From: a virus
Virus record (IMG/VR): IMGVR_UViG_3300046387_000246
Location: 11,494 to 75,493 of that record
Strand: one strand, 5' to 3'
Length of the DNA stretch: 64,000 bases
Shown: piece after piece, positions 3,190 through 27,100 of the stretch
How the letters are laid out: each line of letters opens with the position of its first letter
Numbering within the stretch: position 1 is the stretch's first letter
The notes under the pieces: model-generated
Told to the model about the DNA's origin: nothing
Seen by the model: only the letters and a program-made list of their open reading frames with translations
Database searches by the model: none
Translations under genes and position numbers: made by a program

Positions 3190-6100
3190 ATGAAGGCTAT
3201 TACAATATCAGATAGGTTGCAGGATCAAATTCCTGCATTCATTAAAGAAGATAACGACCAGTTTGTCAATCTTTTAACGCAATATTATAAATCTCAAGAG
3301 AAATCGGGTCGTCCGTACGATGTTTTAAGTAACATACTGAGATATACAGATATTGGTTCGGGAGAATTTGACCCAAATTTCCTTTCTTCTACCTCTGCTG
3401 TACTAGAAAGAGTAGATCCGACACAAAAAACTATAATTGCAGAAAACGTAAATTACTTCCTCGAAAATGATGGTACAATTAAGATCGATGAAGAAGTCAT
3501 TTACTATGACAAAATTACACACTCTCCTGACATTGTTTTCACGCCTGGTGTTGACAAAGCCGAATTCGATAGAAAAATCCAAGAATTCGAACCAATTTCT
3601 GATCAATTTGATGGTTCAACAACGCTATTTCCTTTAAGGTTACTTGGAAAACCTGTAACTCCTCAAAGTTCACAACATCTTCTTGTTATTGTAAATAACG
3701 AGTTTAAATATCCAGATGTAGACTATTTCCTTGAAGGAGATAAGATACGTCTTGTAAACCCCCCAGAAACCCCTACAGGACTGCTTACAGGTGCTATCAA
3801 TACAGTTCGTTACCTAATTGGTTACACAAGCATTCCTGTACGTTCTCTGGACACCATTACTGTTGCTAATGATGCTAAAGAATTTGAATTAAAGTTAGAC
3901 GGATCAAGTTATACTCCATTATCTACTGTATCTTCTATAGTTGTTGTTAATAGAGTAGAAAAACGTCCATATGAAGATTTTACAATATTTGAAAATAAAT
4001 TAATCTTTAAAGAGGATATTGGTGAAAATTCTGTTATCGCTATTCGTTCAATTGAACTTATTGCACCTGAATTTGGTGGTGGTGCGAGTGCAGTTGCTCA
4101 AATTGAAGATGAGAAGTTAAAATCAGTTATTGTTAAGGAAGGTGGTAGTGGATATCGTTTAAGTTTCGCTCCTAAGATTAGTGTTGCGTCAACTAAGGGT
4201 ACTGGGTTTGGTGCTACTGCTGAAGCACTTGTTAATGGTATTAAAGAGACTCAATTACTATTTGCAGGACAAGGTTACGCTTCAAACAATCCTCCAGTTG
4301 TTATTGTTGACTCACCTGCTGACCCTGAAGGTAAAACTGCTCAAATCCGTGCAGTTGTTGATGATTCCATCGAAGGGGTCTCACAACTCATTGTAGACAG
4401 TTCAGGAAGTGGTTACGATAGGATCCCATCGATCAAATTCCAGAATCCTGGTGGTGCAACCATTAGTAACCCAACGTTAACTAACGGTGTGATCGATCCT
4501 GATTCAATTACTGTCACAGATGATGGTTCAGGATATACTACTGCACCTCTTGTGTATTTGGATCTTCCAACAGGTGACAATGCCATAAGAGCTAACGTTG
4601 TTGCAACAATTGATGCATTCGGGCGTGTTAATGGCATTACAGTCGTTTCAGGAGGACAAGGTTACACCAGTGTTCCTAGAGCACGTATTATTGATCCTGT
4701 AGGTGCACAAATACTTGATGTCAATGTAACTGCGGGTAGAGTTACTAATATTGAACTATTAACTGGTGGTGCAGGTTACACAGACGCTCCATCGGTGTAT
4801 ATCGTTGATAATAGGAAGGATATTACTGGTGCACCAGCTGGTGGTACTGGAGCAACTGCTGTTGCAACCATATTCAACGGAGAGATTACTGATATCAATA
4901 TAACCAGTTTTGGAAATGGATACTCAGAAACAGAACCTCCTCAAGTTTTTATTGCTGCTCCACCTGCACCTGAAGCGTCTTGTGACGTTGGTTTTGGTGA
5001 AATTACTGGATTTACGATCCATAGTGCAGGTTCTGGATATCAACCATCTGCATTTGTTAACTGTAAGCGTGGTGTTTCTAGCACATCTTCATTTGATCAG
5101 AAAGGAAACCAAGTATACAGTACAGAAGCATCTACAATTCAATCTTCACACGAGATTGGAGGAGTCATTCACAACCTAGATACACTCTTTGCTAAGGAAT
5201 TATACAGAAGGTACGTAAATCAATATCTACCAAATGCGGAAATTGACTATGAAAAAGTAAATGCTCCGCAGATCATTAAAACTATTTCGGATTTTTACGC
5301 ATCTAAGGGTACAAAGATCTCAACACAGTACCTATTCAAGATGCTGTTCTCTGAGAATGTGGATGTATCTTATCCAAAAGATGAGGTTATTAAACCATCT
5401 GCTGCATCTTGGAACGTAGATACAGTCCTCCGTGCTGAACTTATAGAAGGTGATCCTATTGATTTACTTGATTCACAGTTAATTCAGTATGTGGATGACG
5501 TAGATAACTCTGTTAAGGGTGCATCTGCACTGATTGAGAACGTTATTGCTATCAATACTGGTGTAGGAACTGTATATGAACTTGCTATATCTGAGGAAAC
5601 ACTACAGGGTTCATTCACTATACCCTACAAAACAACTCTTGTAGAATCACTTAACACTACAGAATCAATCATTACTGTTGACTCTACGATTGGTTGGCCA
5701 GAAAGAAACGGAACTATCCGTATTAATGATACTGAGCAAGTACAATATAAGGAAAAGACACTTAACCAGTTCATTGAGTGTACACGTTCTAAGAATGGTG
5801 TTGTTGAAGATTGGGATGCGGGAACTGTAATTCACTCTGATATATTTGTATATTGCAATCGTGGAACCAATACTGAGATTAAATTGCGTGTTTTAGGTAT
5901 TGCTGATGCAAAATCTACCGTATTGACTGATACTGGTTCGTACTACTTACCTGGTGATAAATTAAACGTTGCATCTCTAGGTTCTACTGCTACAGATCAG
6001 CGTATCACTTCTTGGTTGTATAACGTTAAGAAACTGATAAACGTTACTGATATTGTACCTGGCGGACTTAATAACCAGACTGCAACCGTAACTTGCTCTA

Positions 6101-9100
6101 ATAAGCACGGTCTTCTTGTTGGTGACACTGTTACCATCTACGGTGCAAACCCAACTGTGTTCAACGGTACGTTCCTAGTTACTTCACGTATTAGTGATTT
6201 CCTCTTTGAATACAATATACCTGCACCAGCAGATGCTGCTCCACAAGGTAATATCCTCCTATCTGTTGACTTGAATAAAGGTAAGTCTACAGAAGAAGGT
6301 ATCAGCATTGCAATTAGAGACTTTACTACAAACGTACAAAATACATTCTTTGACGATACACACTCATACATCGCTTCTTCAGGTATACCGAACTATCAGG
6401 TAGGTCCTTTCGTAGGTTCTGCACTGTTACCAGGTAACCAACGTAAACTTATACGTATACCACGTGTCATCAATACAATAAGTAAACGTGAACAAACAAG
6501 TTTCGGTCCTATCGGAGCCTGGGTGAACGGAGTTTCTGCCTGGTCATACAAGTCTGAAACAAAAATTAAGTACGGTGGTGTTATAGACATCTCCATAACA
6601 AACGTTGGACAGGGATATGATGCAGCGAATCCTCCTGTTATTGAGATTAGTGGAGGAAATGGTACAGGTGCTGCTGCTAGTGTTGTTGTAAACGGAGCGT
6701 TAAGTGAGATTGAAGTTACTTCTGGTGGTACTGGTTATACTTCTAGTCCTCTTGTTTCTATCGTGGGTGGTAACGGATTCGGTGCAACTGCTACTGCTGT
6801 TATTACAAACGGTGTAGTTTCTAAGATCTTAGTAGAAAACCCAGGTCAAGGATATACATCTCAACCTGATGTGTCTATTTCAGGTGGTGAAGGAACAGGT
6901 GCAACTGCTACTGCTGAAGTTCGCGGACCTATTCAGTCTGTAAGTATTGACAATGCAGGTTCATCTTATACCGCATCTCCTACTATTAAACTAAATTCAG
7001 GTGAAGGTGCTGTTGCACAATCAATCATTATTAATGGTCGTATCGTTTCAATCGCTATTATTGCAGCAGGTCGTGCATATACTACTGCACCAGAGATTGT
7101 AATCAATGGAGATGGTTATGGTGCTGTGGCAAGAGCTACAATTGGTACAGTTGGTGAAGATAGAGGTAAGGTTATTGGTGTTACAGTTGTAAATAGAGGT
7201 ATAGGATATACAACAGGTAACACAACGATCCGATTGGAAGCAGTCGGTGAGATGGCGACATTCACTGCAAACGTTTTTGAGTGGACACGTAACCTACAAG
7301 ATGAATTAGGACAATCCTTTGATACAGCACGCGGTTATGTGTTTGCAGGTTACAACACTCAGTATGGTGGTGAATATGCTCACGTATCTGATCCAAAACA
7401 GCTCCGTTACGTCTTAGGCGATAATGTCTTCAAAAACCAATCGACTCAACAATTACAAGAACTTGCTACTGGGTGGTTACATTCTCCGATTCTTGGATGG
7501 GCATTCGATGGTAACCCCATTTATGGTCCTTATGGTTACATTGATGCTACCGACCAGTCTTCTGGTGTACGTCGTATTAGAAGCTCTTATAAGATTAAGG
7601 ATGTCTTAATCTATGACGCTGCAACTAACCCAACTCCAGTAAGAGCAGACGGACCTCTACTAAGCAACTATTCAGCTGGATCATTTATTGAAGATTATGA
7701 ATATACTTTCCAATATGGTGACTTAGATCAATATAACGGGCGTTTTTGTAAGACTCCTGAATTCCCTGAAGGCATATATGCGTACTTTGTGTCTATCGAT
7801 GCATCAGATGCAGGTAATCCTATATTCCCATACATATGCGGTTCTCAACTTTATTCTAAAGCAGATGAGTGGAACTACAGTCAGAATGCTGTTCAAACAA
7901 ATATTCCATTAGGTGTTGTTAGATTTAGAGATCCATATGAAGATGTTGACATCGATATTGATCGTCAACCAAACCAAGATACTGATATTCTTGTAACTGA
8001 ATTTGGTGAGGAACTTATCTTTGAAATTGAAGATACAAACCGTGATGGTGTTATCAATAATTTAGAAGATAGTACACCTATTAATATTGCAGAAGAACCT
8101 GTACTTCAGTTATTCGATTACTATCCTAAAGTTTCTACTAGATCAGAAGTTGATATTGACATTGAAACTACGACTAAATTTGAGGATGCTCAAGTTGATG
8201 GATTTGTGGTAGAGAATCCTGGTATTTCTTATAAAGTAAACGATAAACTATACTTTGATAATACAGATACAGAAGGATTTGGTGCTTCTGCTAAAGTTGA
8301 CTCAGTTAAAGGTCTTTCAATATCTGGTTATTCTTCATATATGGCGAATGATATACCTTATGGTCGTATCACTACTCCTTCAGAACACGAATTGCGTATT
8401 GGTGATGAAGTTATCGTTACCAGTAATCCTATATTAGATTCTACAAATAAAACTTATAGAGTTAAAGTTATATCTGGTGTTGAAGAATTAACAATTACAC
8501 AGAATGGTGTTGGTTATTCTTCTGAACTACCTCCAACCTATGAGTTGATTACTGACACAGGACAAGATTTCCAACTTTCTCTGGTTAGAACTGATGCAGG
8601 TGGTGTTTCACAAGCAAATATTATCAACTCTGGTTCTGGATACAGTGCTTCTAATCCTCCACAGATCAGAGTATCACATCCACAGAGATATAAGAAAGCA
8701 ACTTACTTCTTATCCTTTATTAAAGAAGCAACTGGTATTCTTTCAGTAAATGACGTTAGAGTCGCTGATGACCGTACTATCTACGTTGTTGGACAAAGAG
8801 ATATAACTGGTGGTGATACTTGTGGTGTTCTTGCTAAGTTCAACAGTGATGGTCGTTTACTTTGGCAGAGAACCTTAGTTCCTACAGTTCCAAATGCTAA
8901 TCCCAAGTCACTAAAATGGAATTCACTATATGTCGAAAACAGCAATCCTCATAATATCTACGTTATTGGTGAAACTGTTCCTAATATTACTAACTTAACT
9001 CATAACCCAGACGTTATCGTTGCAAAATATACTTCAGGATTTGATAATGCAAACAACCCTGATGGTATTCTTCAGTGGCAACGTGATATTGCAGGTATAT

Positions 9101-12100
9101 CTGGTGCTACAAGAAGGGACTATGCTACTTCTATTGCTCTTGATCAAGATGGAAGAGTAATGATAGGTGGTTATACAGACTCTAACAGTTTGTATGCTGA
9201 CGATATGTGGGTTGCTTTACTTGATATCGATGGATCTATTATGGAGAAGCGTAAAATCGCTTCTAGTGCAGTCAGTGAAAGATTACATCAGTTAAAGTGG
9301 AAGTCTACAGATAGATTCCTTTTTGTTGGTATTAACGAACCAGATAATACCTCTGACATCATTATTGGTGAAACTGTCTATGATAGTGCAACTATTGAAT
9401 TAGCTTGGTCTAAGAAGATCACTAATGCATCTTACAAGTTTAAGAATCCAACATTTACTATTGATGAATATGGTTCTGTATATGTAACTGCTACTGCTGT
9501 TAATACTGATGGTAAGAATTATGGTGTTTTATATGTAAAATTTGACAATGACGTTTATACTTCTACCATACACCAAAAGATCTTTGTACCAAGTGGTACT
9601 TATCAGAGTTGTGAGAATGGTGGAGTTAAATTTGATATCTTTGGTAACGTTGATGTATCTTGTTCTGTACAGGAAGATTTCAATGCTGCTAAATCTGTAA
9701 CTCTAAAGGTAGGTTGGAACACAGGTACCGCTATTAATTCTACAGTTCTATCAGAAACAAGTGGTATTGGTTTCAAACCTGTTGCAGTATCTAATGATAA
9801 CTCAGGTGATACTATTGTTGTTGGTAATAAAGTTGAATCTGACCAACTTGCAATCTTTAACTGGGATACTGCTGATAACTTATTTGATGAGACATATAAT
9901 GACACTTTAAAAACTGGTACAAACAAACAGTGGTATGCTACTGGTAACGCTGTAATTGATGACACTAAGAAATTTGCTGGTGCATCTTCTATTAAATTAG
10001 ATGCTGCTAACTCTCTTGCACTTCAGTATGGATCAGATGTAGCAACCAGTTGGACTATGGAGGGATTCTGGGCACTAGGATCTACTCAGTACGCTGCTGC
10101 TAATACAAAACCAATATTCTATACATCTACTGATAATGCAGGTAACGTTGTTAAATTTGGTCTTGATGCTGATCAAAGTAGTCCCAACTACGGTAAATCA
10201 TTTATAGACATCTCAGGTACAACTACATTCTCTGCTGCATCTGTATACTTTGCTGTACTTAATAATGAAGTATTCATTCACGTAGCAGCAGTTAAAGAAC
10301 GTGTTGGAGTTGGAGATTACAAATATAGATTCTTTATTAATGGTATTGAAACACAAGTTCTTACAAGTACCACAATTGATGTTAATTTAAAAGATGCTAG
10401 TGTGGGTCCTGATGGAACACCTGGTTCAGTCAATAACTGGATTGGTTGGATTGACAACATAGTCATCTCACCGACCGCCAAGTATGTTGAAGCGTTTACT
10501 CCCCCTGATACACCGATTCTTGGTTCTAATAGTATCAGTAAAGGTTTCTTATACAAGGTTGACAAAGATAAAACACAGTTAGGATCATTTACTCTTAACG
10601 ATGTTGAATCAGGACATCAGATAACTCTTGCTTCTACATCTGCATATACATTCAATACTCAAGCAGTAACGCTGAATCCTTGGACAATAGGTCCTGCTGG
10701 TATTCAAATCCTTGACTATGGTGATGTAGTAGCACAGCACGTACCTGGTGTATTTACAGTCACATCTACAGATCAGTCTTACGCTAATAAAACTTCTACT
10801 ATTCCTACACCAGGTGGTAAGAAATTACTTCTTACAACTACTGTTGTACCAAAATACTACTTCAAGGATGCAACATATACACAAATTGACCTTGTTAAGA
10901 CAATATCATTTAATCAACCAGCTACATTCACTAAAGGTGCTACATTACAACAGTATTCAGTGATTGGTGGTTCTGATGTTATATCTGCGTATGGTCAAAT
11001 TGTTGAAGTAGGAGCTAGTTCTGTCAAGATTGGTAAGATTATTGGTACATTTGATAACACAAAACTACTAAAATCAACTGCTAATGACATAAATGAACTA
11101 GAAAGGAACTTTACAGAAGAAAAAACAGAAACACAATGGGCAACTAACTTCAATTACACTGTTGGAGATGTAGTTTATAACGATAAAAAACTCTATACTG
11201 CACAAACAACTGGTGTTTCAAGTACAATTGCACCTGTACATACAACTGGAGTTGTTTCTGATGGTGCTATTAACTGGGCTTATACCTCAGCATCAGGCAT
11301 ATATGTTGTAGATCTTGCAAATACATCTTATAATGGCAGTACATTAGCAACATTTGCTTCTTGGAAAGCATTCTCAGCGTCTGATTACACTATTAAGATT
11401 GAAGAAATCTATGATGACTCCAACTTTATTAAAGGAGACACCATTGATGCTGATGCTGTCAACCTACAATTTGCTGTTGATGCTACTGGTAAGATAGCAA
11501 CCTTCACTGGACTGCTTGGTGTTAAGAAGATATCTTTAATTGCAAAACTTAATAAGGACGTAATTCCTTCTGGATCACTTACAAACACTGATTTAGTATA
11601 TTGTTCTGCTGCAAGTAGACATAATTTCGAACTTAATGACATTATATTCACTGAAAACTTTGGTACTAATGATTATAATGGTTCATTCTTCGTAGAAGAG
11701 ATATTTAATTCTAGAGACTTCAGTTTCCGTCTAAGAAGCACTGCTGTACAAGATCCTACCTTTGCTGGAACTGGATCTTCAGTAGCTAACGTCAATATTT
11801 ACGCTAAACATCCTAAATTCCTCTTTGTTAGAGGTCATCAGTACATTTTTGACCTTGATGATGCTTCTAACTTAGGATATTACTTGTCATTCTCTAAAGA
11901 TAACCAGTATAAACTGGAATATCCTTTCATTAATATCGTTAGAGAAGGTACACCAGGTTTCACTGATGATGATTCACCAACTCCATTGGTTAAATTTATC
12001 ATTAACGAAGACGTTACTAATATTTCATACTACTTTGACCCTTCTAGAACAGGTGCAAACTCTCCTGTTGGTGAAGGATCATTCATTGACGTTATAACTT

Positions 12101-15100
12101 CACCTTATCAAGGTACATTTAGAGTAACTGGTACAAGTAACGGTGGTAAAACATTCGACTTCAGACTATTAAATGAACCAGAAAAAACTACTGGTGCTGT
12201 GGGTAATGATGAATTTGGTCTTCCTCGTTCTACTTACTCAACAACATCAATTAAGGCTATCGGACCTATTTCCGCTATTAAACTGGTAAATCCAGGTGGA
12301 TTCTATCAGAAACTACCAATCGTTACAGATATTGCTTCTAACAGAGAAATTGAAAAGGTTAGAGTTACTAACGGTGGTACTGAATATGTAAATGGTGTCT
12401 ATTATAATGTTCCTATCTCTGGAGACGGTGAAGGTGCTATGTGTAACATCACAGTTACTGATGACGGTGACTTTACTGGTGTTATAACTGATGTTACTTT
12501 AACCTCAGCAGGTAAAGGATATAAAACTGCAACTATTGATGTAGATGCTATACCAGGTATTTTAGGACCTCTACTTGCAGGTTCTGGTGCAGTACTAGAT
12601 GTTGTGATTCCTGATGAAGGTTCAGGTGCATCTGTATTCTTACAAGGTAAATCAATTGGTAAGATCAAGAAACTTAAGAACAATGAATTTGGTTTCGGTT
12701 ATTCTCACGACTATACACTAAAACCTGAAATAACTTTCCCTGTAAACCTTCAGTTGTTTAATACCGCTTTACTAGCACAAATCAAGATAACTGACCCAGG
12801 TTCTGGTTATACTTCAACACCTGCTGTTGTAATCGAAGGTGGTGGTGGTTCTGGTGCTAGTGCTGAAGCAATAGTTAAGAACAACAGACTTTCCGAGATC
12901 ATTATTAAAGATCCAGGTGCAGGTTACAGTTCTGAACCAACAGTTACACTTAAATCAGAATTTAACTACGTTGTTAACGTTGATTTAGGATATCTACAGT
13001 TCAACTTCCCACACGGTATAACAAACGGAGCAGAAGTAACATTAAGAGCAGAGGATCTTGGATCTACAGTCGGTATTCTACCAAAACCTAGTTCAGCAGG
13101 TTTGGTCAGTCTATCTTCTTCCCAGACATACTATGCTATTGCAGGTCAAGCAAATGGTCTTGAATCTGATCAGTTACGTATCTCTCTAACACAGTTAGAT
13201 GCTGAATCTGGTTCTTACATTACATTCCTAACACAAGGTGAAGGTAGACAGATACTTCTTACTGAGGTATTTGGTGGTCAAGCAACTGCTATCGTTGAAA
13301 CTTCTAGATTCCTTGCAGGTGAACTTGTTTATCAAGGTACTTCACTTCAACTTGCATCTGCTACAGGTTATGTTTCTACTAACGAAGGTTGGCAGATCGG
13401 ACCTAGAATCCTTAAACTTGAAAACTATGACGGTGTATGGAATCCTGGTGAAAGAGTAACTGGTGAGGTATCACGTGCTTCTGGTTTGATTGATAACCTT
13501 TCTATTGCAAGAGGTACACTTGAAATTGCATCTCTAACCAATACACCAGGTCAGTTTATCGATGACGTTGGTAAACCATCTGAAATTGTTCAGAAGATTC
13601 AAGATAGTTACTTCTATCAGAACTTCTCCTATGTTATTAAGTCTCAAACACCTATTAACCAGTGGAGAAAACCTGTACTAGAAACAAACCACCCTGTTGG
13701 ATTTAACCTATTTGGTGAACTATCAATCACTGGTGGTAAGGATATATCTGGAAGAAAGGTTGTATCTGACCTTATTAAAGAAGTTAATATTAATAGTTTC
13801 ACTAATATTAATAAAATTACATCATTTGCTAACGCACAACCAATTTATACTCAGTTTAATAACACTGAAGTCTTATTCAGACAGAAGAGACTTACTAACT
13901 CTGAGGAAATTCTAACTTCTATCGTTAAGAAATTAGATGATATTTCTGAGGACTTTGATGGAATTAGAACTCAATTCCCTCTTAATGTAGAGGGTGGAAG
14001 TATTACAGCAGCAGATAATCAGATGTTTGTCTTGATTAATGGTGTTGCACAGTCTCCTAGCGTAGCATTCTCAACTTCAGGACCTTCAGTTGTCTTTACT
14101 GAAGCACCGAAAGCACCTTCTAGAATTAAGTTTAGAAAGGTTACACTAGCACAAAAGATAATCACAAGACTAACATTTAGTAGTATTGGTGGTATTTTCC
14201 CATTACTAGGCAATACAGTTCGTGGTATAGTTTCTGAAGCAACTGCAACTGTAATTGACTCTGGTACTAATTACATTGACGTTATTGATGGAGAAGGAAC
14301 TTTCCAAATCAATGAAAATGTTCTTAATAGTGCCACAGGATTTAACTCTGTTCTTAGCGATGTTTCTCCTCAAACTTCTAAGACTATCTACGAACAAGGT
14401 GAAAGAATTACTAACCTACAAGGTAAGTTTGCTGTTATTGAAGAAAATAACCTAGATGATGGTACTGTTACTAATTTACTTGTTGTTTCTCGTACATCTG
14501 GTACTGCTGAGTTTGAAACTGGTGAATTTGATTTAGGATTTAACGATATAATTTATTCAGCACGTTCTAAGATTGCAGCAACTATTCAGTCTATTGCACC
14601 TTATCAGGATGAGGTATCTAATCAAATTATTGATACAGTTGATCTATCTCCTTCATCTTCCTTCTTTGGTCTTGTATTCCAGAGGGTTCCTTCAATTACT
14701 TTCCCGAACGTTATCCTTGATAATATTTCAGAGACTGTTATTAACCCAACTGAACTTTATACTGAAACAGTTAATAACCAAGACTTCCTAGACTTTGAGA
14801 ATGTACGTAACCAAGAGGTTAGACTTTATAACCAATCTGGTACTGCATTTGTTGCTGGTGATAAATTACGTCTTAAGAAACTATACTTTGGTAACTCTTC
14901 ACTAAGAAGGGGACACGATGTACGTACATTTAACGCTGCTGAGGCTCTAACACGTAATGCAAGATTTATTGCAGAAGAATCCGTGGGAGCAATGTTGGCT
15001 TTCTACCCCTCCTTTAGCATTCAAACTGGAAGAAACGCAGATTGTGAAGATGATATCGTAGATGCTCTTACTATGATGGCGTGGCAGTTAGAGTTTGATG

Positions 15101-18100
15101 GTAACTCTGAAGTATTTGATATTGCTAATACTTACGTTCAAGGTGGCGGTGTATATCACGTAGATGGTGAAGTACCTCAAACTGTTTACGCAATGGAACA
15201 GGCACGAGATCTAGCGATCAAGTGTATCAATATGGTGACTATTAATACTGTACATACTTCATTACAGCAATGGAAAGATTTAACCGTTACTGGTGAGTAT
15301 AGTGTTACTGATAACTCTCACGGTGATGCAAGAACAATGATTCTTGCTAACAAGTGGTATATCGCTCACGAAGCATTGTACTATGCTAAACAGCAGAATC
15401 CTGGTTATACAGTATCTGGTGGAGATGAGCATTGTCTTTCTGATATTGTTGATGTTCTAGAAGCATTAGGATATAACACTGCTCACGGTGGTAATGACTT
15501 TGTATATGAAGCAACTGATAGAATTCTTCATTATGGTGTTACTTCTGGAGACAGAGATACCATCGTAAATGCGATGACTAAAGCCAGAGATATGGCAATC
15601 GCTGTTATGAGAAATACTGCTGTTGCAAAACAAGATACTTCACACGGTTGGACACAGTTTACTGATGCAACTCTAACTGCATCACTTGAAAGTCCACTTT
15701 GTGCAACAGTTGAGGCAACAATAACCACGTTGATGAATTTACTGATTAATGCCCTCGGTACTACTGCATCACCTGGTACAAGAGCAGCATTCTTAGCTGG
15801 TCAAACTAGAACAGAACCAAGTACAGCACTATTATCAGTTCCTGATGCTAATGCTTGTGTAAACCAGACATCTGCTATTACAAACTACTTCAGAATAATT
15901 ACTGATACATTACAGGATCCTACAGGTGCTGATAAAGTAACTTATCCTTGGTCTACAAGTAACTTACAAAGAGTTGCACCTCCATACTCATTTGTTGACA
16001 CTGAAAATCTTAAATCTATTAAGCACGCTTATAAAGATAAGTCATCTGGTGGATTCTTCGTCTTTGGTGAGACAGTTACAGGTATCACATCTGGAAACAC
16101 TGCTGAGATCATCGGTTCCAATGCAGGTAATAAGTGGATCTATACTAAGAACCCAACTGGTGCATTTACTGCTGGAGAATACATTACTAATAGTCTCTTA
16201 ACTAATACTAATGTAGTTGTAGATAACTTAGATTATGCTGTTGGTACTGGATCATTAGAATTTAACGGTAGTGCATACTTAACATATCCTGCAACTGAAA
16301 ATGTTGCTTTTGGAGATGGTGCTGGTGCTGCTGGTGACTTTACTATTGAATTATGGGTCAAGGTTACTGCTGTTAATACTAACCAAGTTCTTATTGACTT
16401 TAGAACTGCTGCTGGTTCTACAACCGAAGCATACTTAATCATTGTTAATAACACTGTTCGTTGGAACACAGGTAATGTTGATAGAATTACATCGTCTGCT
16501 AGTTTACAAGCAAATACTTGGACACATATCGCTGTAACACGTAACTCTGGTCTAACTAGACTATTTGTTGGTGGTTCAAAAGAAGGTGTTGATTATACAG
16601 ACGCTACAAACTATGGCAATATGCCAGTTAAGATTGGTGCGAACGTTGCTGGTTCTCTACCAATGACAGGTCATATTGAAAACTTGATGATTAAGAAAGG
16701 GATTGCTGAATACAGTTCTAGCTTTACTCCAAGTGCAACATATGATTCTGGAGACTTACGTCTAACATTTGGATTTGATGGTGAAGCACCTATTCCTCTT
16801 ATTAAAGGTGAAATTTATGCTACATTCCAACAAACAATAACATCTCAATGTTCTGCTGATGGTGTAGAACTATGGCGTGATGAGATTATGACTGAAGAGA
16901 TTGATCTTGCTCGTGATACTTATAGAGATTGTGCAGATATAATTGAGAAGAATAAGTATTGGATTGCTGAGGAAGCTATCGGAAGAATGAAGGCGAAGTA
17001 TCCTGACTTTATCATTCCTGGTGATACTGGTATATCTGATCAAGGTACTAAGACTTGTTTAAGAGATACTTACGAATATATTATACCTGCTATCGTTGCT
17101 GATCTTAAATACGGTGGTAACTATAATACTATTGTTGCAGGTAGAGGATATCTTGCTAACCAACAAGGTCAGTTAGCACACGTTAATGGAGAACTTCTCC
17201 AGTCCATCTATGCTTGGAGAGAAGTTGGTAAGTTATGTAATACTGTTATCACTGCTAACGCTGATGATCTAACTGGCGTATATACAACTCGTATTCGTGT
17301 TCCTAATTACTTTGCATCACCAGCCTCCAGTACAATCACTACTTACATTAGTGATATTATGGATGATCTTCTTGATGTTCTAGGTCCTACAGGTCACAGA
17401 TATAGAGACGGTGCTGATCTATTGTACTTTAATAGAAAGGCAATCGCTGAAGAAACAGTGATGTGGTTGGAAGAAAAATACAACATAATGATTGGGTTTA
17501 ATACCGCAGATAAACTCACTATACCTGGTGGATCTGTAGGTACCAATAAGTGTATTCGTGACTTGAGAGACCACATTATACCTGCGATCTCAGGAGATTT
17601 ACTTACTGGTGGTAATGCTAATATTCAAGGAATTATAGATTCTTATTTAAGTTCATCTGATAATATTTCTTACGTTGAGACAGAACTACTACCAATGCTT
17701 GATGCTATTGGTTATACTAAGTGGTTAATGGAGAAAGCATTACAGAACTGTTTGGTTGGTAGATCTGAAAACGTCGCTAATATTACAGGTATGACTCCAC
17801 TGACTATAGATGATCTATTCCAGTTGCAGTATACAGACATTCCAGTATTCCGTAAAGAAGTTTCTGCTGATGACAACTTTGCAGAGCAACCTCTTGATCC
17901 TCAGATATATGCAGGATCACAACGTGCTTTAGATGCTGCTGATCTAATCAATACTAATAAGAGAGCGATTGCTGAGGAAGCAGTTGACTTAACAATCAAA
18001 ACAGAAGCATTCAAACATTATGGATTTAGAGTTCCTGGTGGAAAGGTTAATTGTGAAGATGATATTGTTGATATTCTAGAAGGTGTTGTTCACGATCTTA

Positions 18101-21100
18101 GATTTAACTCTAACTCTAAGACTTACGATGCTGCATTATTGTATCTTGATTCTGAGAATGGATTGAAGCACGTTAAAGATCAACCTGCTGAAACACTCTT
18201 TGCTATGAAGATGGCAAGAGATATGACAGTTCTCGCGATTCAGAACCGTCTTGGATTTAAACCATATGCAACATATGCTCCAGCTGGCGGTGGTGCTACT
18301 GGTGGAGAGGGCTTTGCTGGCGGTGGTGCTATTGTAGAACCACGTGATACTTACTACGAAAACGCTTCTGGTAACAAGGCATATAATGCTGCTGATGAGA
18401 TTAGAAATAACTTAAGATTCATTGCTACCACTGCTGTTGGACGTGCTGTACAGCAGTATCCTTCACTAGCATTTGGTGGATATGGTTATCAGTCTTGTGT
18501 TGATGACTGTGTTGATATTCTAGAGTCATTAGTATTCAACTTATCACACGGTGGTAATAACAAGATGTGGTATGCCACTGAGTTTTATATCACTGATGCT
18601 AATGCTATTCAACACGTCAATAACCAAGCAGCTGAAGTTAAGTACGTATTCGAACAAGCACGTGACCTTGCTATTGCAGTAATGAGACAGCAGTTGATCA
18701 CAACTAACGGTTATACCGAAGGTGATGCGATCTATGATCTTGATATTACTATTGACCAAGCAAGTGGAACTGCTAAACATACACCATCAAATGCAACTTA
18801 TAATCCTAATACTGGAGACTTAGTTCTTACTATCACTGGTTCTCATTCAATTACTACAAGTGATACTCTTAGAATTGATACTAATTCATTAGTCTTTACT
18901 TGTGATCAAGATGATCATCAAACTTTACACCCATATCCAAGAGCAACTGATCCTGCTGCATTAGCAATTCTTCCTATTACTGCTGTAAGTGGACAGGATA
19001 TTACAGTCAATGTTGGTATAACACAGAGAATTAACTTTGATGCAAAGGATTCTACTTATGATCCTGAGACAGGTCTATTAACTCTTGATATTGGATCACA
19101 CAATCTAAGAATTGGTCAATCACTTAAGATTCTACAAGATGAACTACTATTCCGTTGTTCACAGGATAATTACAGAACTATTCATAAGTATCCTCGTATT
19201 ACTGACCCAGTAGTTGATAAAGCAATTGATATTGAAGCTGTCGGGACTACATTCCATACTGCTACATTTGCTTCTTGGAGACCTGACAGTGCGTTCTTAA
19301 GTATTACTATTCCTAATCACGGATTCAAGAATGGTGACAGAGTTAGAATCTCTAATCATTCTATGACATTCACTTGTTCTATGGATCAGCATTATAGTAA
19401 GAAGACTTATCCAAGACTTTCTGATGCTGCAAGTGGATTATTCCTACCAATTTCTAATGTAACTAGAAACAATTTTGATGTGAACATTGGTAAGAGTCCT
19501 ATCAAATACTTCACACCATCTCAAGCAAACTACAACCCAACTACAGGTGCACTAGAACTTATTCTTGGAAACCACGGTTTGACTGCTGGTACTCACATCA
19601 AGATAGCAGATAACTCTCTAACATTCACTTGTGATGAGGACGATAACGCTACTTATCACACATACCCAAGAACACAGACTGTACAGGTTACTCCAACAGA
19701 TGCTTCTTACAATCCTGTTAATGGTCACCTAACAGTTACTGTTGCTAATCACGACTTTAAGGTTGGTGAGTTTGTTAAGGTTGCTGAAAATGGAATCGTG
19801 ATGACTTGTGATATGGACGGAAATGCTTCTGAGCATCCATATCCACGTAAGAAGGATCCAGCATATGATTCTTGGATGGAAATTGCAGCAATATCTACAA
19901 ACACATTTACATTTAAGGTTGGAGAATCTCCTCAAATAAGTTTCACACCGACAGATGCGGTTTACACCCCTACTACTGGTGATATGAAACTCACTATTGG
20001 TACTCACAATCTACAAGCTGGTACTGCATTGAAGATTGAAGAAAGTGGAATCGTATTCAGTTGTGCACAAGATAATCACGCTACAGAGCATCCTTATCCA
20101 CGTAGTACTATTCTTACTGCTCCTAATATTTCCAACGCTATGTATGATCCAGCGGCTGGTTTATTAACAGTAACAACTGCTGCTGTTCACGGCTTCACAG
20201 ATGGCGATAAAGTTAAGTTTGCTGATAATGCTATTACATTCACTTGCTCAATGGATAGTAATGCAACAAATCATCCATATCCAAGATCAACTGACCCTGC
20301 ATCTGGTAAGTGGTTAGAAGTTGATGTAACTAGCACAACTGAGTTTACTTGTAACGTAGGTAGGACACCTAGTGTTGTATTCGATCCTTCAATGGTCGTT
20401 TATGATCCTTCTACAGGTATTATGGTTATGACCATTGGTGCTCACGACTTAACAGTTGGAACATCTGTAAGAATCGCTAATAATTCAATTACATTTAAGT
20501 GTGCTCAAGATAACTACGCTACTGATCACTCTTATCCTCGTTCTACTGACCCATTCTATGATACTTCTTGCCCAATCACTGCTGTTACTGACACCACAAT
20601 TTCAGTACAAGTTCTAAGTACAGTTCCATCTACAAACGTAACTGCTCATACTTGGCAACCACCTGCTAAGTTGACACCAACTAATGCAACTTACAACCCA
20701 AGTACAGGGGTTATGGAAGTTACTGTTGCTAATCACGGTTTAATGAATGGTGAGCACATCAGAATCGATGAAAATGCTTTCACATTCACTTGTAATCAAG
20801 ATAGTAATGCTACTAACCACGCATATCCAAGATCAACTGACCCTGCATACCATCAGTTCTTACCAGTTTCTAACGTAACTCAGAATACATTCCAAGTTAC
20901 TGTTCTTGCTGTAACACCTTCTACTAATACTACAACTCACGCATTTGTAAGTGCTGTTTCTGATAGCATTACTAGAGGTGTTGTGAGAAGCGGTGGTATT
21001 TACACTCACGCATTTGTAAGTGCTGTTGCTGGATCTCTTTCATATAAGAAAGACCAAGCATTTGATTCTTCAGTTACTATTAAGCACGAAGGTACTCCTT

Positions 21101-24100
21101 TAACTCCTACAGGTGCTTCTTATAGTGGAACTACTGGTATTTGTCAGATTACTAGCAACAATCACGGATTAATTGATGGTGATTATGTCAAACTAAGAGA
21201 TGGTGCATTGACATTTACTTGTGCTGAGGATAGCAATGCAACAAACCATCCTTATCCAAGACACACTGATTTAGCATCTAATAAGTGGTTAAAAGTAACT
21301 AACGTCACTCAGAATACTTTTGACATTCAAGTACTATTCTCTATCCCATCTACTAACCAAACTGCTCATTTATTTGTTTCTGGTTTAACTGATGGAATCG
21401 TTAAGAAGGACGATACAATTACTGTTAATGTTGGTGCAACTACTGCTGGTAACTACGAGCATAAGTTCTTATATGCAGAACCTGCTGCAATCAAGACTGG
21501 TGGTAATTACAACCACGTATTTAAGTCAGCGTTGCCATATTCTATTACTAAGTCTAAGGATCCATCATACAGTAATGTATTGACAATCGATGGTGCAACT
21601 TCAACTTCAATCACAGTTAATGTTCTTCCAGCAGTACCTTCTACTAACGAAACATCTCATACATTTATTTCTGCTTCCAATAATGCTATTACTACTGGTG
21701 GTCAGTATGTTCATAAGTTTATTGAAGCACAACCTGATGGTATTGAATTAGAATCTGGATCAATTACAGTTAATGTTGGTACAACACCTGCTGTATTCTA
21801 TAGTGTTGCTGATGCAATCTATGATGGTGAAACAGGTGATATGGAACTTATGGTTGGTGCACACGAACTTCTTGAAGGAACAAGTATCAAGATTCACGAT
21901 AATGCATTGACATTTACTTGTGATATGGATGATCACGCTTCTGAGCACGTTTATCCTCGTTTAACTGACCCTGCTGCAAACACTGCTTTAGTAATGAAGG
22001 AAGCAGGTTCCACTTCTCATACTGTTACTGATGCATCTTACAATACTATAACTGGTGATATGACCTGTACCCTTAATGGTCACGGTCTAAAAACCTCAAG
22101 AACACTCTCTCCAACCTTTGCTAAGTTTGATCCTACAACAGGTGATATGGAAATATATTCAGTTAATCACGGTATTACTGATGGAGAAAGTGTCAAACTT
22201 GCTGATGGTGCTGTTACATTTAGATGTGCTAAAGATCAATTCAGTTCAACTCATCCATATCCAAGATCAAGCGATCCTGCATCTGATCAATTCCTAGTTG
22301 TTAAACACGCTTCTCAAAATAGATTTACAGTTAACGTTGGTACTGGAGAAACTGGTGGTGCTATCTCTGACCAGAGTGAGCATAGATTCCAAGCATCAGT
22401 TCCTAATAGTATTACTGTTGCTCCTAATATGGTTAAGTTTGATCAGGATGCTATTACATTCACTTGTACTAAAGATAGTAATGCTACTAACCACGCATAC
22501 CCAAGAGCAGATGATCCTGTAGCTGGACATTGGATTCCAATTAAGGCAGTAACTACAAACACATTTACTGTTAATGTTGGTGTTTCAACTGCTGCTGGAA
22601 ACTATCCTCACACATTCGTCAGTGCAACTACTGGTGGAATGAAACTACAAACTGGATGGGTTAAGGTTAACGTTGGTTCTACACCTTCTACTGGGTTTGA
22701 TCCTGCCACTGCGAGTTTCAACGCAATCACAGGTATTATGACTCTTGGTTTGGGTAATCATTACTTCAATAGATTTGATAATATTAGAGTACAACCTGAG
22801 TCATTAATATTCACTTGTGGTTTAGATAACAATGCAACGAATCATCCATATCCTCGTTCTACTCTCATCGAATCTACTCCTAGTGATGTAGATTATAATC
22901 CTTCTACTGGATACTTAACTATCACACAGAATAATCACGGATTCTCTAATGGTGATTTTGTAAGATTCAAGGAAAACGCATTCACATTTACTTGTGATAT
23001 GAACGGTAATGCTGATAATCATTCATATCCTCGTACAACTGATCCAGTTTATGATAAGTGGGTTACAGTTGAGAGTGTTCAAGCAAATACCTTTAATGTA
23101 TTTGTAGGTAAGACACCTACTACTGGATTTGAACCATATGCTGTAGATTATAATCCTTCTACTGGATTGATGAAGATGACTATTGGTGAGCATAAGTTTA
23201 CTACAAGTCAGAGCATTCGCATCGCTGCGATGTCATTGAACTTCCGTTGTGATCAGGATGGTCAAGCTACAGACCACTTATATCCAAGATCTACTGACCC
23301 TCTATATCAAACTTCAGTACCTATCTCTGCTGTTGACGATACAAGTATTACTATACAAACTCTTGCATCTGCACCTTCAACTAATATAACCACTCACGTT
23401 TGGCAACCTCAAGTTGGTATTACTCCTACTGGTATTGATTATGATCCTGTGACTGGAATGATGACAGTTACTTGTTCTAATCACGGATATAACGAAGGAG
23501 ATATGGTTAAGTTTGCTGAGAACGGAATTACATTTACTTGTGATAAAGATAGTCACGTTTCTGATCACCCATACCCACGTAAGACAGACCCTGCTTGGGA
23601 TAAGTGGTTACCAATTGAAACTGTAACTGGTACAACATTCAGAGTTAAAGTTCTTGACAATGTTCCTTCCACTAATATTTCTACTCATACATTTAAATCT
23701 GCTGTTGCTAATTGTATAACAAGAGCAACTGTTAGAGGTGGTGGTGTTTACAATCATACTACTGTGTCTATTGCTTCTAATAGTATGGAGCATAAGAGAG
23801 ATCCATTCTATCAGAGAGGAATCAACATTGATCAGGTTGAAGAGACAACTCATACAGTAACCAATGCTTCATACAGTCCATCATCAGGTGTGATGAGACT
23901 TACAATACCTAATCATAATTTCACTGCTTCCACATCTCATACTGTAACTGATGCTCTTTATACACCTGCTGACAGTATGTTGAGATTGACTATTGCAGGT
24001 CACGGATTCAAGGAAGGTGACAGAATTAGAATCGCTGATAATTCTATTACATTTACTTGTGATCAAGATAGTAATACTACTAATCATTCATATCCAAGAT

Positions 24101-27100
24101 CAACTGATCCTGGTAGTGGTGCTTGGTTAGTTGCAACTAAGGTAAGTACAAATCATTTCCACGTTAATGTTGGTAACTTCTTTGGTAGAGGTCCGATTTC
24201 TAATCAGACAACTCACTCATTTGTATCTGCAACTGCTAATGGTGTAGAGAAAGCAAATGATAAAATCAAGATGGCAGAAAACTCAGTTACATTTACTTGT
24301 GCTAAAGATGATAATGAAACTCTCCATCCATATCCTAGACAAAATGATCCTGCATACAACGAATATCTACCTATTTCTGATGTAACTACTCACGAGTTTG
24401 ATGTATTTGTTGGTCGTGCAAACTTAGATCAGACTGTTCATCAGTTCTACTCTGCAACAGATAACGGAGTTACACATCCTACTGGAAATATTACAATCAA
24501 CGTTGGTATTTCTTCTAACACTACAACTCACAACTACGTTACCACTACTACAACTTACGATATAACTGGAGCGACCTACAGCCCAACTACAGGTGTAATG
24601 ACGCTGACCATTCCTAATCATAAGATGTATGTGGGTGAGTACATTTATCTTGCTGATGGTGCTGTTACCTTTAGTCAAGGTGCTTTACCAAATTCAAATG
24701 ATGAAGTAAGTGGAAGAATGATTCGTGTACAAGGTGTAATTTCTGATAACCGCATTCTTATTGTTTACGGAACTAATAGTAATACTGCATCTTGGTCATA
24801 TCAATCTGCTACTGCTGGTGCAGTTACTAAACCTAAGATTCTTGGTGGTGGTGTTTACAATCACAAGTATGTTAGTTCTACTGGTATGGCAGTTCGTGGT
24901 GGTGGACATTATACTCACCAATTCGAAGGTCCTGCTAAGACAACTGTTACTGACGCTGCATACAATCCTACTTCAGGTGTTATGACTGTTACAGTTCCTA
25001 ACCACGGTTGGGAAACTGGAGATGGTGTTATTATCGATGACGATTCTATCGTATTCACTTGCACACAAGATAGTGGTGCTACTGAACATCCATATCCAAG
25101 ATCAAAGGATCCTGTAAGTCGTCAGATTCTTACAATTTCAAATGTAACTACTAACACATTTGATGTACAGGTTCTAGCAACCACACCTTCTACAAACACA
25201 ACTACTCATACATTTGTAAGAGCAACTAAGCACGGTATCAGAAGAGCTGCTATTCACACTGGTGGTGCTTATAATCACATCTTTGTTAGTTCTACAAATG
25301 ATTCTCTAACATCATATGTTGGTGGTGGTGCTGCTCGTTGTCAAAACGAAGCATCTGCTATTACTACATTAATGAATATTCCTATCAATCTATTTGGTAG
25401 TGGATCAGCTAATCCAAATACTTACATAAGTGGTATTACTAGAACTCTACCGAAGGAGTGGCCACTAACAGGTGAACGTGCAATTCAACGTGATATTTCA
25501 ATCACATATGATAGTGGATCTGGTGACTGTGCAACTGAAGCATCTACAATTAGTACATTATTTGGATACTTAATTAATGTTATTGACACTGCTTCTAAAG
25601 GAAATGGTAACTACTTTACTAACCAATCAATAACAAGAAACGCACCTGCTCAAACTAATACACTTCTTGCTGGTGGTGGTATTTGCTATAACGTAGTTTC
25701 TGCTATGTCAACATTGGCAGACTTGTTAGAAGATACTCTTGGACAAGCTCCTGAAATGTATCGTCAAACTGCAAGACTACTATTATTGAATGACACATAC
25801 GTCAGACGTGAATCATATTATAAGACAGTACAAACTTACGCAGGTTATAACGGTGACGAAGATTTCGGTGATTCAGTACGTAAAGCATTTATTTATGACT
25901 TACTCACAGACGGTAATATTGCAACAATCGACTTAGTTAATAGTTGGTTTGATGCCGAGGGTAATTTCATCGCGTATCCTGGCATCTTCAGGACACAATT
26001 AATCTTCCACGCAGACGCTGTTAAAGAAATGTGTGTCAAGATTATTAAACAGAAAGCAGATAATCCTGGTGGATATAACCAAGAGATTCCTTATGAGAAT
26101 AAGGAGTATCGTCCTACTGAGACTGCTGAACACAAATTACATCAACTATATCATATAATTGACGTTGCACTTAACCGTTCTACATTCCCATCAATTTACT
26201 TGAAGTTTAACTTTGATGTTGGTGCTCAGGTTAATCAGAATGGTTCACTTGATGCTCCTGATGGACACAACTTCGAAGCATATGATCGTGTAACTTATAC
26301 AGTTCTTGGTACTGCTATTGAAGAATTAGATCGTACAACTTATATCATTCACCCAGACACATCAGAGAATCTAATCTGGTTGGCAGAAGAGATTGATGGT
26401 GAGAAACTTACCGTACTATCTCCAGGCACACCTGGTCAGACTCACCAATTATCTGTATCTGATGAGACTGGTATCAATAGAGTTCCTACAACTTACGGTA
26501 CACGTAATGTTCCTACACCTATTACTGGTGGTATCAATACTGCTGATATATTCTTCGGTGAAACTTCAGGTGCATATGGTGAAGTTATTAGAATCCAAGA
26601 CAACTTAGCAGATATTCTATACGCTGTTAAGTGGATGCCACTCACACGTACAAGTGATCCTGAGACATTTGTTAACGGTGAAGAAGTTGTTAAGACTGGT
26701 GCTACTGGTAACAAAGGAACTATCCTCGCTACAGACAATGCAACATATGTGAAGATTATTATTACTGGTGGAAACATTCAATCTGGTGATGCAATCGAGG
26801 GATCTACCTCTGGTGCTACAGGTAATATTGGATCTGATATTCACGATCGCTTATTGATCAACATCAAGCAAGGTGATTTCATTGCTACTGATATACTTTA
26901 TGCTAAGAATGCTACAAGTAAGGCAGAAGCATTGATAGTACGTAATAACGATGGTGCTCTACTTGATAACCAATCTGGACGTGTCACATTTGACATTGAA
27001 TCTGTTAAAGGTCAATTCAATAGTGGCGATGTTATCTACGGTTCTGTTACTGATCAAATCATCGAGATTGAAGGATTTAATATCCTTCCTGGATTTGGAG

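Follow-up and report, generated by a model that had tools for sequence, protein, structure and literature searches.

A giant cyanophage baseplate wedge protein with probable nesting of phycobiliprotein-like domains around a variable array of beta-domains

The window analysed here is a stretch of 64,000 nucleotides from a marine T4-like cyanomyovirus (IMG/VR record IMGVR_UViG_3300046387_000246, positions 11,494 to 75,493). On its plus strand, at 3190 to 28890 in the list of open reading frames (ORFs), it encodes a giant virion protein of 8566 amino acid residues, which occupies the place of gp7 among the genes for the baseplate wedge. The middle of this protein holds repeated helical units (H1 to H7) and an array of small beta-domains, the tree, and some of the units open ahead of the tree with no closing helix before it. 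This raises the question of what kind of domain the helical units are and whether the helices behind the tree complete the units in front of it. A preliminary description of the sequence had proposed that the units are nested, with H2 inside H1 and the tree enclosed by H4, H5 and H6. We find that the units are related to phycobiliproteins, whose fold serves the cyanobacterial host for its light-harvesting pigments, and that they are probably nested, each inserted in the loop between helices G and H of the one outside it.

All the helical strings quoted in the preliminary description were recovered, each in its place. The six openings, which consist of an N..[FW]IA.E helix, C..D and GGN, start near residues 3923, 4054, 4588, 4748, 4923 and 5074; all six can be aligned to one another, and the degenerate seventh unit at residue 7518 aligns to them as well. 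Five closing helices are led by a cysteine, at residues 4171, 4223, 7384, 7447 and 7499, and the regular expression for them matched the protein five times, as against 0.004 matches expected per shuffle of the protein. The sixth closing, that of H3, is free of cysteine and spans residues 4710-4739. With O for an opening and C for a closing, the protein reads O O C C, then O C, then O O O, the tree of 2167 residues and C C C, followed by the degenerate seventh unit. Since a hidden Markov model (HMM) of the closings had zero matches between residues 4743 and 7372, H4, H5 and H6 open without being closed and exactly three closings follow the tree, which bears out the earlier description on this point. 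The elements are listed below.

14923 to 15297, plus strand: H1 opening with phycobiliprotein-like helices A to G (residues 3912-4036), RTFNAAEAL at residue 3912 (nucleotide 14923), C-E-D-D at residue 3952 and the G-H loop element KDLTVTGE in its tail.
15298 to 15789, plus strand: H2, a complete unit with helices A to H in the G-H loop of H1 (residues 4037-4200), from the alignment of an AlphaFold model to phycobiliprotein beta chains; Cys 4082 lies within C-L-S-D, Cys 4171 begins the closing helix and the closing string covers residues 4169-4185.
15847 to 15933, plus strand: H1 closing helix with Cys 4223 (residues 4220-4248); the quoted closing string covers residues 4222-4237 (nucleotides 15853-15900).
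16900 to 17415, plus strand: H3, a complete un-nested unit (residues 4571-4742) with T-C-L-R-D at Cys 4623 and a closing without Cys, from PF00502 and allophycocyanin alignments at the Cys.
17416 to 17877, plus strand: H4 opening (residues 4743-4896) with C-I-R-D at Cys 4788, from the alignment and HMM of openings.
17905 to 18252, plus strand: H5 opening (residues 4906-5021) with C-E-D-D at Cys 4955 and a Gly-rich linker after it; no G-H loop element is present in its tail.
18358 to 18804, plus strand: H6 opening (residues 5057-5205) with C-V-D-D at Cys 5103; its tail ends in the loop element DLDITID.
18805 to 25305, plus strand: the payload, a tree of about 21 small beta-domains in the G-H loop of H6 (residues 5206-7372), from YPR cores and a token parse.
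25336 to 25413, plus strand: first late closing helix (string from residue 7383; Cys 7384), assigned to H6, whose opening it adjoins in tree-less relatives.
25414 to 25605, plus strand: return half of the H5 G-H loop (GITRTLP.EWPLTGER...DISITYD) and second late closing (string from residue 7446; Cys 7447), assigned to H5 from the loop element and linker conservation.
25675 to 25764, plus strand: third late closing helix (string from residue 7498; Cys 7499), assigned to H4 from the closing HMM and the loop element; it continues straight into H7.
25741 to 26109, plus strand: H7, the degenerate seventh unit without either Cys position, from the alignment and HMM.

The three late closing strings together span nucleotides 25336-25728. 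The outward linker from H5 to H6 (18253-18357, residues 5022-5056) is rich in Gly, and in some relatives about 45 residues at this place are nearly pure Gly (L008 and L017). In contrast, the return linker before the second late closing is highly conserved.

The fold of the units was identified by sequence comparison and structure prediction. The H3 region matched the Pfam family PF00502 (Phycobilisome protein) with 30.3 bits within a long piece, the cut-off being 22.2 bits, and with 20.2 bits when H3 was taken alone. Of 17 complete units that were taken one by one from this phage and relatives, 11 matched PF00502 at E <= 0.1, and a precomputed match to this family is present in most homologues. 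When H3 (with phmmer) and profiles of the units were compared to the PDB sequences, nearly all matches were allophycocyanin, phycocyanin or phycoerythrin chains, the best with an E value of 8e-5, and these matches placed the unit cysteine on the C-L-R-D bilin site. A profile of the closing helix by itself gave chance matches only in the PDB.

A template-free AlphaFold model was then made of residues 3900-4262, which comprise H1 with H2 inside; its predicted local distance difference test score (pLDDT) was 70 and its predicted template modelling score (pTM) 0.65. When the PDB was searched with this model by Foldseek, about 45 of the top 50 rows were phycobiliprotein beta chains, with a probability of 1.0 and a target template modelling score of 0.5-0.69. 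VIA-align laid residues 143-291 of the predicted model on residues 34-172 of a phycobiliprotein beta chain (129 residues, 2.5 A, Z 13.3-15.1). According to these alignments, H2 including its closing helix (model residues 270-290) corresponds to the phycobiliprotein helices A to H, apparently without the N-terminal X-Y hairpin. The core alignment begins only at chain residue 34 and the units have about 10 residues ahead of helix A; some alignments put a helix of H1 on X-Y, with a root-mean-square deviation of 6.5 A.

Taken together, the profile matches and the predicted model show a unit with a phycobiliprotein beta-like globin fold that is apparently devoid of the X-Y hairpin, in which the opening provides the helices A, B, E, F and G and the closing provides helix H. 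They also show that the domain insertions sit in the G-H loop of this unit. We conclude that the host domains of the nest are true relatives of the light-harvesting phycobiliproteins and have kept the bilin-site residues. The preliminary description had seen the helices as an out-and-back helical stalk. The out-and-back order was supported, but not the plain helices, since the units are globular domains of the phycobiliprotein fold by their PF00502 matches, PDB profiles and the AlphaFold model. A generic coiled stalk was dropped after the fold had been identified.

With the beta subunits CpcB and CpeB and the cryptophyte beta chains (PF00502), the units share the globin-like helices A to H, the long G-H loop and C-x-R-D on helix E. 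The units also have a Cys where helix H begins, at position beta-153/155, and the spacing C-x4-S/A-x-I-x3-F/M in common with them. Unlike these subunits, the cyanophage units apparently lack the X-Y hairpin for alpha-beta pairing, occur six to seven times within one baseplate protein and accommodate insertions in the G-H loop; their match to the bilin site is one of sequence and model. No publication describing phycobiliprotein-like domains in virion proteins was found, though Pfam detects them.

A complete H2 is found between the opening and the closing of H1, and the proposal that H2 lies inside H1 was supported. The arrangement around the tree was analysed by comparison, for which the opening and closing HMMs were run on 31 IMG/VR loci, 105 database homologues and two isolates. 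The close relatives all keep the order (( )) ( ) ((( x ))) (, where x is the stretch from the third opening to the first closing. In this phage and its nearest kin x amounts to about 2190-2210 residues, and in the other close relatives to about 537, about 112 (one beta-domain, directly seen in L014) or 0; over all homologues the payload ranges from 0 to about 3500 residues. In the tree-less relatives the first late closing adjoins the H6 opening just like in simple units. It follows that the tree was inserted into the G-H loop of H6 and that the first late closing belongs to H6. In more distant lineages, the complete units are arranged purely in tandem (P0065) or a two-deep terminal nest is present (P0070), and the four-deep nests of P0027, P0030 and P0032 contain one extra inner opening paired with one extra closing. 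Recursive insertion is thus seen in payloads of 0, about 110, about 540 or about 2200 residues at one site, in an extra inner unit that comes with an extra closing and in lineages that are un-nested.

Strings of openings and closings were written for 99 assessable proteins, after H3-type closings had been added and split openings merged. The strings were balanced in 64 of the 99 (depth 1 in 10 of them, depth 2 in 4, depth 3 in 47 and depth 4 in 3), and at no point of any of the 99 strings were there more closings than openings.

These counts bear on a different explanation, namely that H4 to H6 are complete domains of five helices and that the three late helices stand apart from them, either as an independent three-helix domain or as an N-terminal extension of H7. 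Two points speak for it: the third closing does lead directly into the first helix of H7, and the fold of the triple nest was predicted without confident packing. However, the number of late closings tracks the number of unclosed openings (0, 2, 3 or 4) across the lineages, and the tree-less relatives have their first closing after H6 as in simple units. In addition, the closing is the phycobiliprotein helix H in the H2 model, so that an opening alone would be without a core helix. We therefore consider an independent late-helix domain to be very improbable.

The assignment of the second and third late closings was deduced from a short element in the G-H loop. In simple units this element (e.g. 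D-T-T-I-T-V-D) is found about 8-20 residues ahead of the closing Cys. Among 37 triple-nest proteins, it was present in the tails of H4, H5 and H6 in 26, 0 and 24 cases, and before the late closings 1, 2 and 3 in 0, 30 and 0 cases, respectively. Nested pairing alone, with H5 on the second closing and H4 on the third, gives one loop element per unit, whereas crossed pairing gives two to H4 and none to H5. In the protein studied here, the element before the second closing is DISITYD, which lies inside the conserved return segment GITRTLP.EWPLTGER. The tree-less variants, the matched counts at depths 1-4 and the complementarity of the loop elements thus support the earlier proposal that the late closings close H6, H5 and H4, in this order, around the tree. 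A weak correlation was obtained between the similarity matrix of the openings and that of the closings, with r of 0.32 for the nested, 0.01 for the crossed and -0.28 for the same-order pairing when these three realistic pairings were compared; over all 720 assignments the nested one ranks 137th.

Helices H might complete the openings in another way, either crossed or in trans between copies of the baseplate protein by domain swapping. Baseplate wedge proteins are present in multiple copies, long Gly-rich linkers such as the tail of H5 would permit swapping, and the contacts in the nest come from inference. Such an arrangement is nevertheless unlikely, as the loop-element count fits nested and not crossed pairing. 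Moreover, payloads of 0 to about 3500 residues and extra inner units at one site are most simply explained by whole domains being inserted one after another, and this route yields the nested order only.

Several observations weigh against the nested arrangement. An AlphaFold prediction of a natural tree-less form, H4 to H6 with the three closings (L032, alignment of 21 rows), had a pLDDT of 46 and a pTM of 0.27 and was unusable. In the model of H1 with H2, the H1 closing helix (model residues 327-343) reached a pLDDT of 52-66 only. Unbalanced strings were found in 35 of the 99 proteins, all with surplus openings; we assume that these are due to missed short closings, for which the 30-position model has a low sensitivity, or to partial leading matches. 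Finally, the orthology of closings to openings in un-nested lineages, as assessed with class HMMs, was noisy and clear for H3 alone. A complex prediction of the H4 to H6 openings with the three closings of this protein scored 0.00, 0.69 and 0.00, which is evidence neither way. Because the structure predictions gave no confident packing, it is from sequence comparison that we infer the physical re-pairing of each outer helix H with its own opening. With these points considered, the sequence evidence makes a nested topology of the phycobiliprotein-fold units in this protein probable.

According to this topology, the protein would have been built by recursive domain insertion into G-H loops, of H2 into H1, of H5 into H4, of H6 into H5 and of the array of about 21 beta-domains into H6. 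The chain would run out through the three openings, pass through the payload and come back via the helices H of H6, H5 and H4. Because the chain returns in this way, both conserved ends, the gp7-like N-terminal part and the C-terminal part of about 1000 residues, could remain in the baseplate. The payload, freely variable in size, would be displayed on a chain of three globular domains, and its role may be display or adhesion. Among close relatives 0, 1, 5 or about 21 payload domains are found at one loop, an arrangement by which a phage can change the module that it displays and leave the two baseplate-anchored ends undisturbed.

The tree itself was delimited by the cores of its beta-domains. 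All 20 of the 20 YPR cores lie within residues 5205-7372 and none was found elsewhere in the protein. In a rough token parse with four segment types, opened domains close last-in-first-out and about nine levels are reached in the first half. The payload sizes of the relatives are near multiples of one domain of about 105-110 residues. A total depth of about 12 had been claimed for the protein; about nine beta levels and three helical levels fit this number, and with a parse as rough as this one the depth is plausible. Weak matches to E1_FCCH (PF16190) were noticed within the tree.

The core-membrane linker of the phycobilisome, ApcE, is also a large multidomain protein with a phycobiliprotein fold built in, and it accommodates an inserted loop, the PB-loop. 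Many of the relatives are like it in that they have an insert of about 100 residues between helices B and E of H6, which we take to be the place of the PB-loop in ApcE. This second insertion, of up to about 320 residues, was observed in the H6-equivalent unit of P0028-P0063 and of L004 (P-TIM40), beside the G-H payload or instead of it. ApcE differs as a cellular antenna protein with a single phycobiliprotein domain, and it is not known to have nesting in a G-H loop. Eight other giant proteins of 4800-6900 residues (P0073, P0079, P0081, P0090, P0093, P0095, P0096 and P0105) have 17-35 tandem phycobiliprotein-like openings, nearly all with C..D, and no recognisable Cys-led closing helix was found in them; they seem to use the fold in a separate architecture.

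Folds that are recursively inserted into themselves are known, and a six-level nesting of hybrid motifs in Si3 of the cyanobacterial RNA polymerase beta' subunit is the extreme case in a 2026 survey (PMC13114784). As in the sandwich-barrel-hybrid motifs of Si3 (PMC13114784, PMC11515920), the same fold is repeatedly inserted into itself in the cyanophage protein (A1-B1-C-B2-A2), to a depth that is specific to the lineage. The fold and the protein are different, however, and the cyanophage protein nests two folds in series, with three to four helical levels followed by about nine beta levels. Also unlike in Si3, the payload ranges from 0 to thousands of residues between near relatives. With two folds in series and about twelve nested levels in a single polypeptide, the cyanophage protein would exceed the six-level record of Si3 (PMC13114784).

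The conserved cysteines of the units were then compared to those of phycobiliproteins. The Cys of C..D aligns to the phycobiliprotein Cys-82/84, that is, to C-L-R-D of allophycocyanin and phycoerythrin. In a set of 867 units taken from 108 giant proteins, the bilin-site column is C in 98%, with R in 59% (D in 22%) at position +2 and D in 95% at +3. In the units of the protein studied here, the Arg of helix E remains solely in H3 and H4. The closing Cys corresponds to model residue 272. The last aligned residue of the model, 291, lies 19 residues further on and falls on residue 172 in several beta chains of C-phycocyanin. The same distance of 19 residues separates Cys-153 from the C-terminus in C-phycocyanin beta; its 22-residue C-terminal motif matched residues 151-172 of 1ha7_B and 2uum_B exactly. 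From the alignment of the cysteines and the spacing in helix H, the first and second cysteines of a unit coincide in position with the two bilin sites of phycobiliprotein beta chains, beta-82/84 and beta-153/155.

The preliminary description had suggested that these two cysteines form stapling disulphides. In each unit, a bond between the C..D Cys and the closing-helix Cys would lock helix H onto its own opening; both cysteines are kept in five of the six complete units here, and a virion protein operates in oxidising seawater. This suggestion was not supported. The two bilin sites of phycobiliprotein beta chains, with which the unit cysteines coincide, carry separate chromophores that are well apart. 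Among contiguous units that keep the first Cys, the second is absent in 146 of 350; the H3 closing is without it in all relatives, and the number of cysteines per unit is often odd. An obligatory intradomain staple is unlikely from these findings. It is more likely that the conserved cysteines are functional sites inherited from phycobiliproteins. An extra Cys at a similar place in helix G was observed in H1, H3, H4 and H7 (residues 4012, 4683, 4854 and 7615), and H3 has one more in helix A.

Inherited bilin sites bring up the possibility that the units carry pigment. The phycobiliprotein-like units of the baseplate might be chromophorylated in the infected cell, and the bilins carried by the virion might be the light sensor behind the light-dependent adsorption of P-HM2, P-HM1 and S-PM2. 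We regard this as speculative and rather doubtful. Modification of the helix-E Cys would be autocatalytic or the work of host lyases, and that of the helix-H Cys (the beta-153/155 site) the work of the phage CpeT; through the nesting, a light-driven change in the helical domains would be passed on to the payload at the tip. T-type lyases act on Cys-153 of beta subunits, and among cyanophages only myocyanophages have cpeT and bilin genes (PMC10452541). P-HM2, P-HM1 and S-PM2 need light for adsorption independently of photosynthesis, and P-SSM2 adsorbs in the dark (PMC6628666).

The presence of the unit profile was compared to that of the CpeT family (E <= 0.001) in ten genomes. Both were present in seven of the ten (P-HM2, S-PM2, S-WAM1, P-TIM40, P-SSM4, Syn9 and S-RSM4), and neither the unit profile nor CpeT was matched in P-SSM2 (NC_006883) and S-SSM7 (NC_015287). 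P-SSM7 was discordant, with units and no CpeT match at this threshold. The co-occurrence gave about 0.07 in a one-sided Fisher test, computed by hand on ten genomes that are not independent. That P-SSM2, the dark adsorber, is without units is a weak hint for pigment binding, and so is the C-x-R-D consensus in the units. In S-PM2, cpeT is located 1.45 kb upstream of a unit-bearing gene for 3779 residues that is annotated as 'short tail fiber protein' (L040, NC_006820, 163952-177267), and in S-RSM4 (NC_013085, 169996-177038) the nearest unit match, on the same strand, is about 3 kb away from it. No CpeT was found in the source record itself, a fragment of 75 kb that is 42% complete. These hints, all weak and from small non-independent samples, make pigment binding worth testing. 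The units are thus a testable candidate for two questions, the purpose of the phage CpeT and bilin genes and the light-only adsorption of some cyanomyoviruses (PMC6628666, PMC2984593).

In S-PM2 and P-HM2 the units are split over two large ORFs. The S-PM2 RefSeq record (L040) also has 16 tRNA features (168556-173383) inside an 11-kb coding sequence at 165928-177267, which looks like a problem of annotation coordinates.

The identity of the giant protein was determined from its matches and its neighbourhood. In the region of the tail sheath, terminase and portal genes, the DNA of the source virus is about 75% identical to P-RSM6 and S-CAM22. The N- and C-terminal parts of the protein match the PHROG families phrog_701 'virion structural protein' and phrog_2885 'baseplate wedge subunit', and phrog_708 'baseplate wedge subunit' was also matched. 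The ORF is flanked by a gp6-like wedge gene on one side and by gp10- and gp8-like genes on the other. Homologues of 6400-7400 residues in S-WAM1, P-TIM40 and S-RIM2 are labelled 'baseplate wedge initiator', 'similar to gp7' or 'virion structural protein'. From the PHROG matches, the position in the wedge cluster and the annotation of the homologues, we assign the ORF at 3190-28890 to the gp7-type baseplate wedge proteins. It resembles gp7 of T4 in its gene place between gp6-like and gp10/gp8-like genes and in the 'baseplate wedge subunit' matches at both ends. In contrast to T4 gp7, the cyanophage protein is about eight times longer, and its middle part with the YHYH domain, the laminin-G domain, the phycobiliprotein-like units and the beta-domain tree has no counterpart there. 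The YHYH and laminin-G domains of this middle part are located as follows.

7282 to 7800, plus strand: YHYH domain (PF14240, E 9e-31) at residues 1365-1537 of the same giant protein.
16300 to 16686, plus strand: Laminin_G_3 or concanavalin-like domain (PF13385, E 1e-14) between the pair of H1 with H2 inside and H3.

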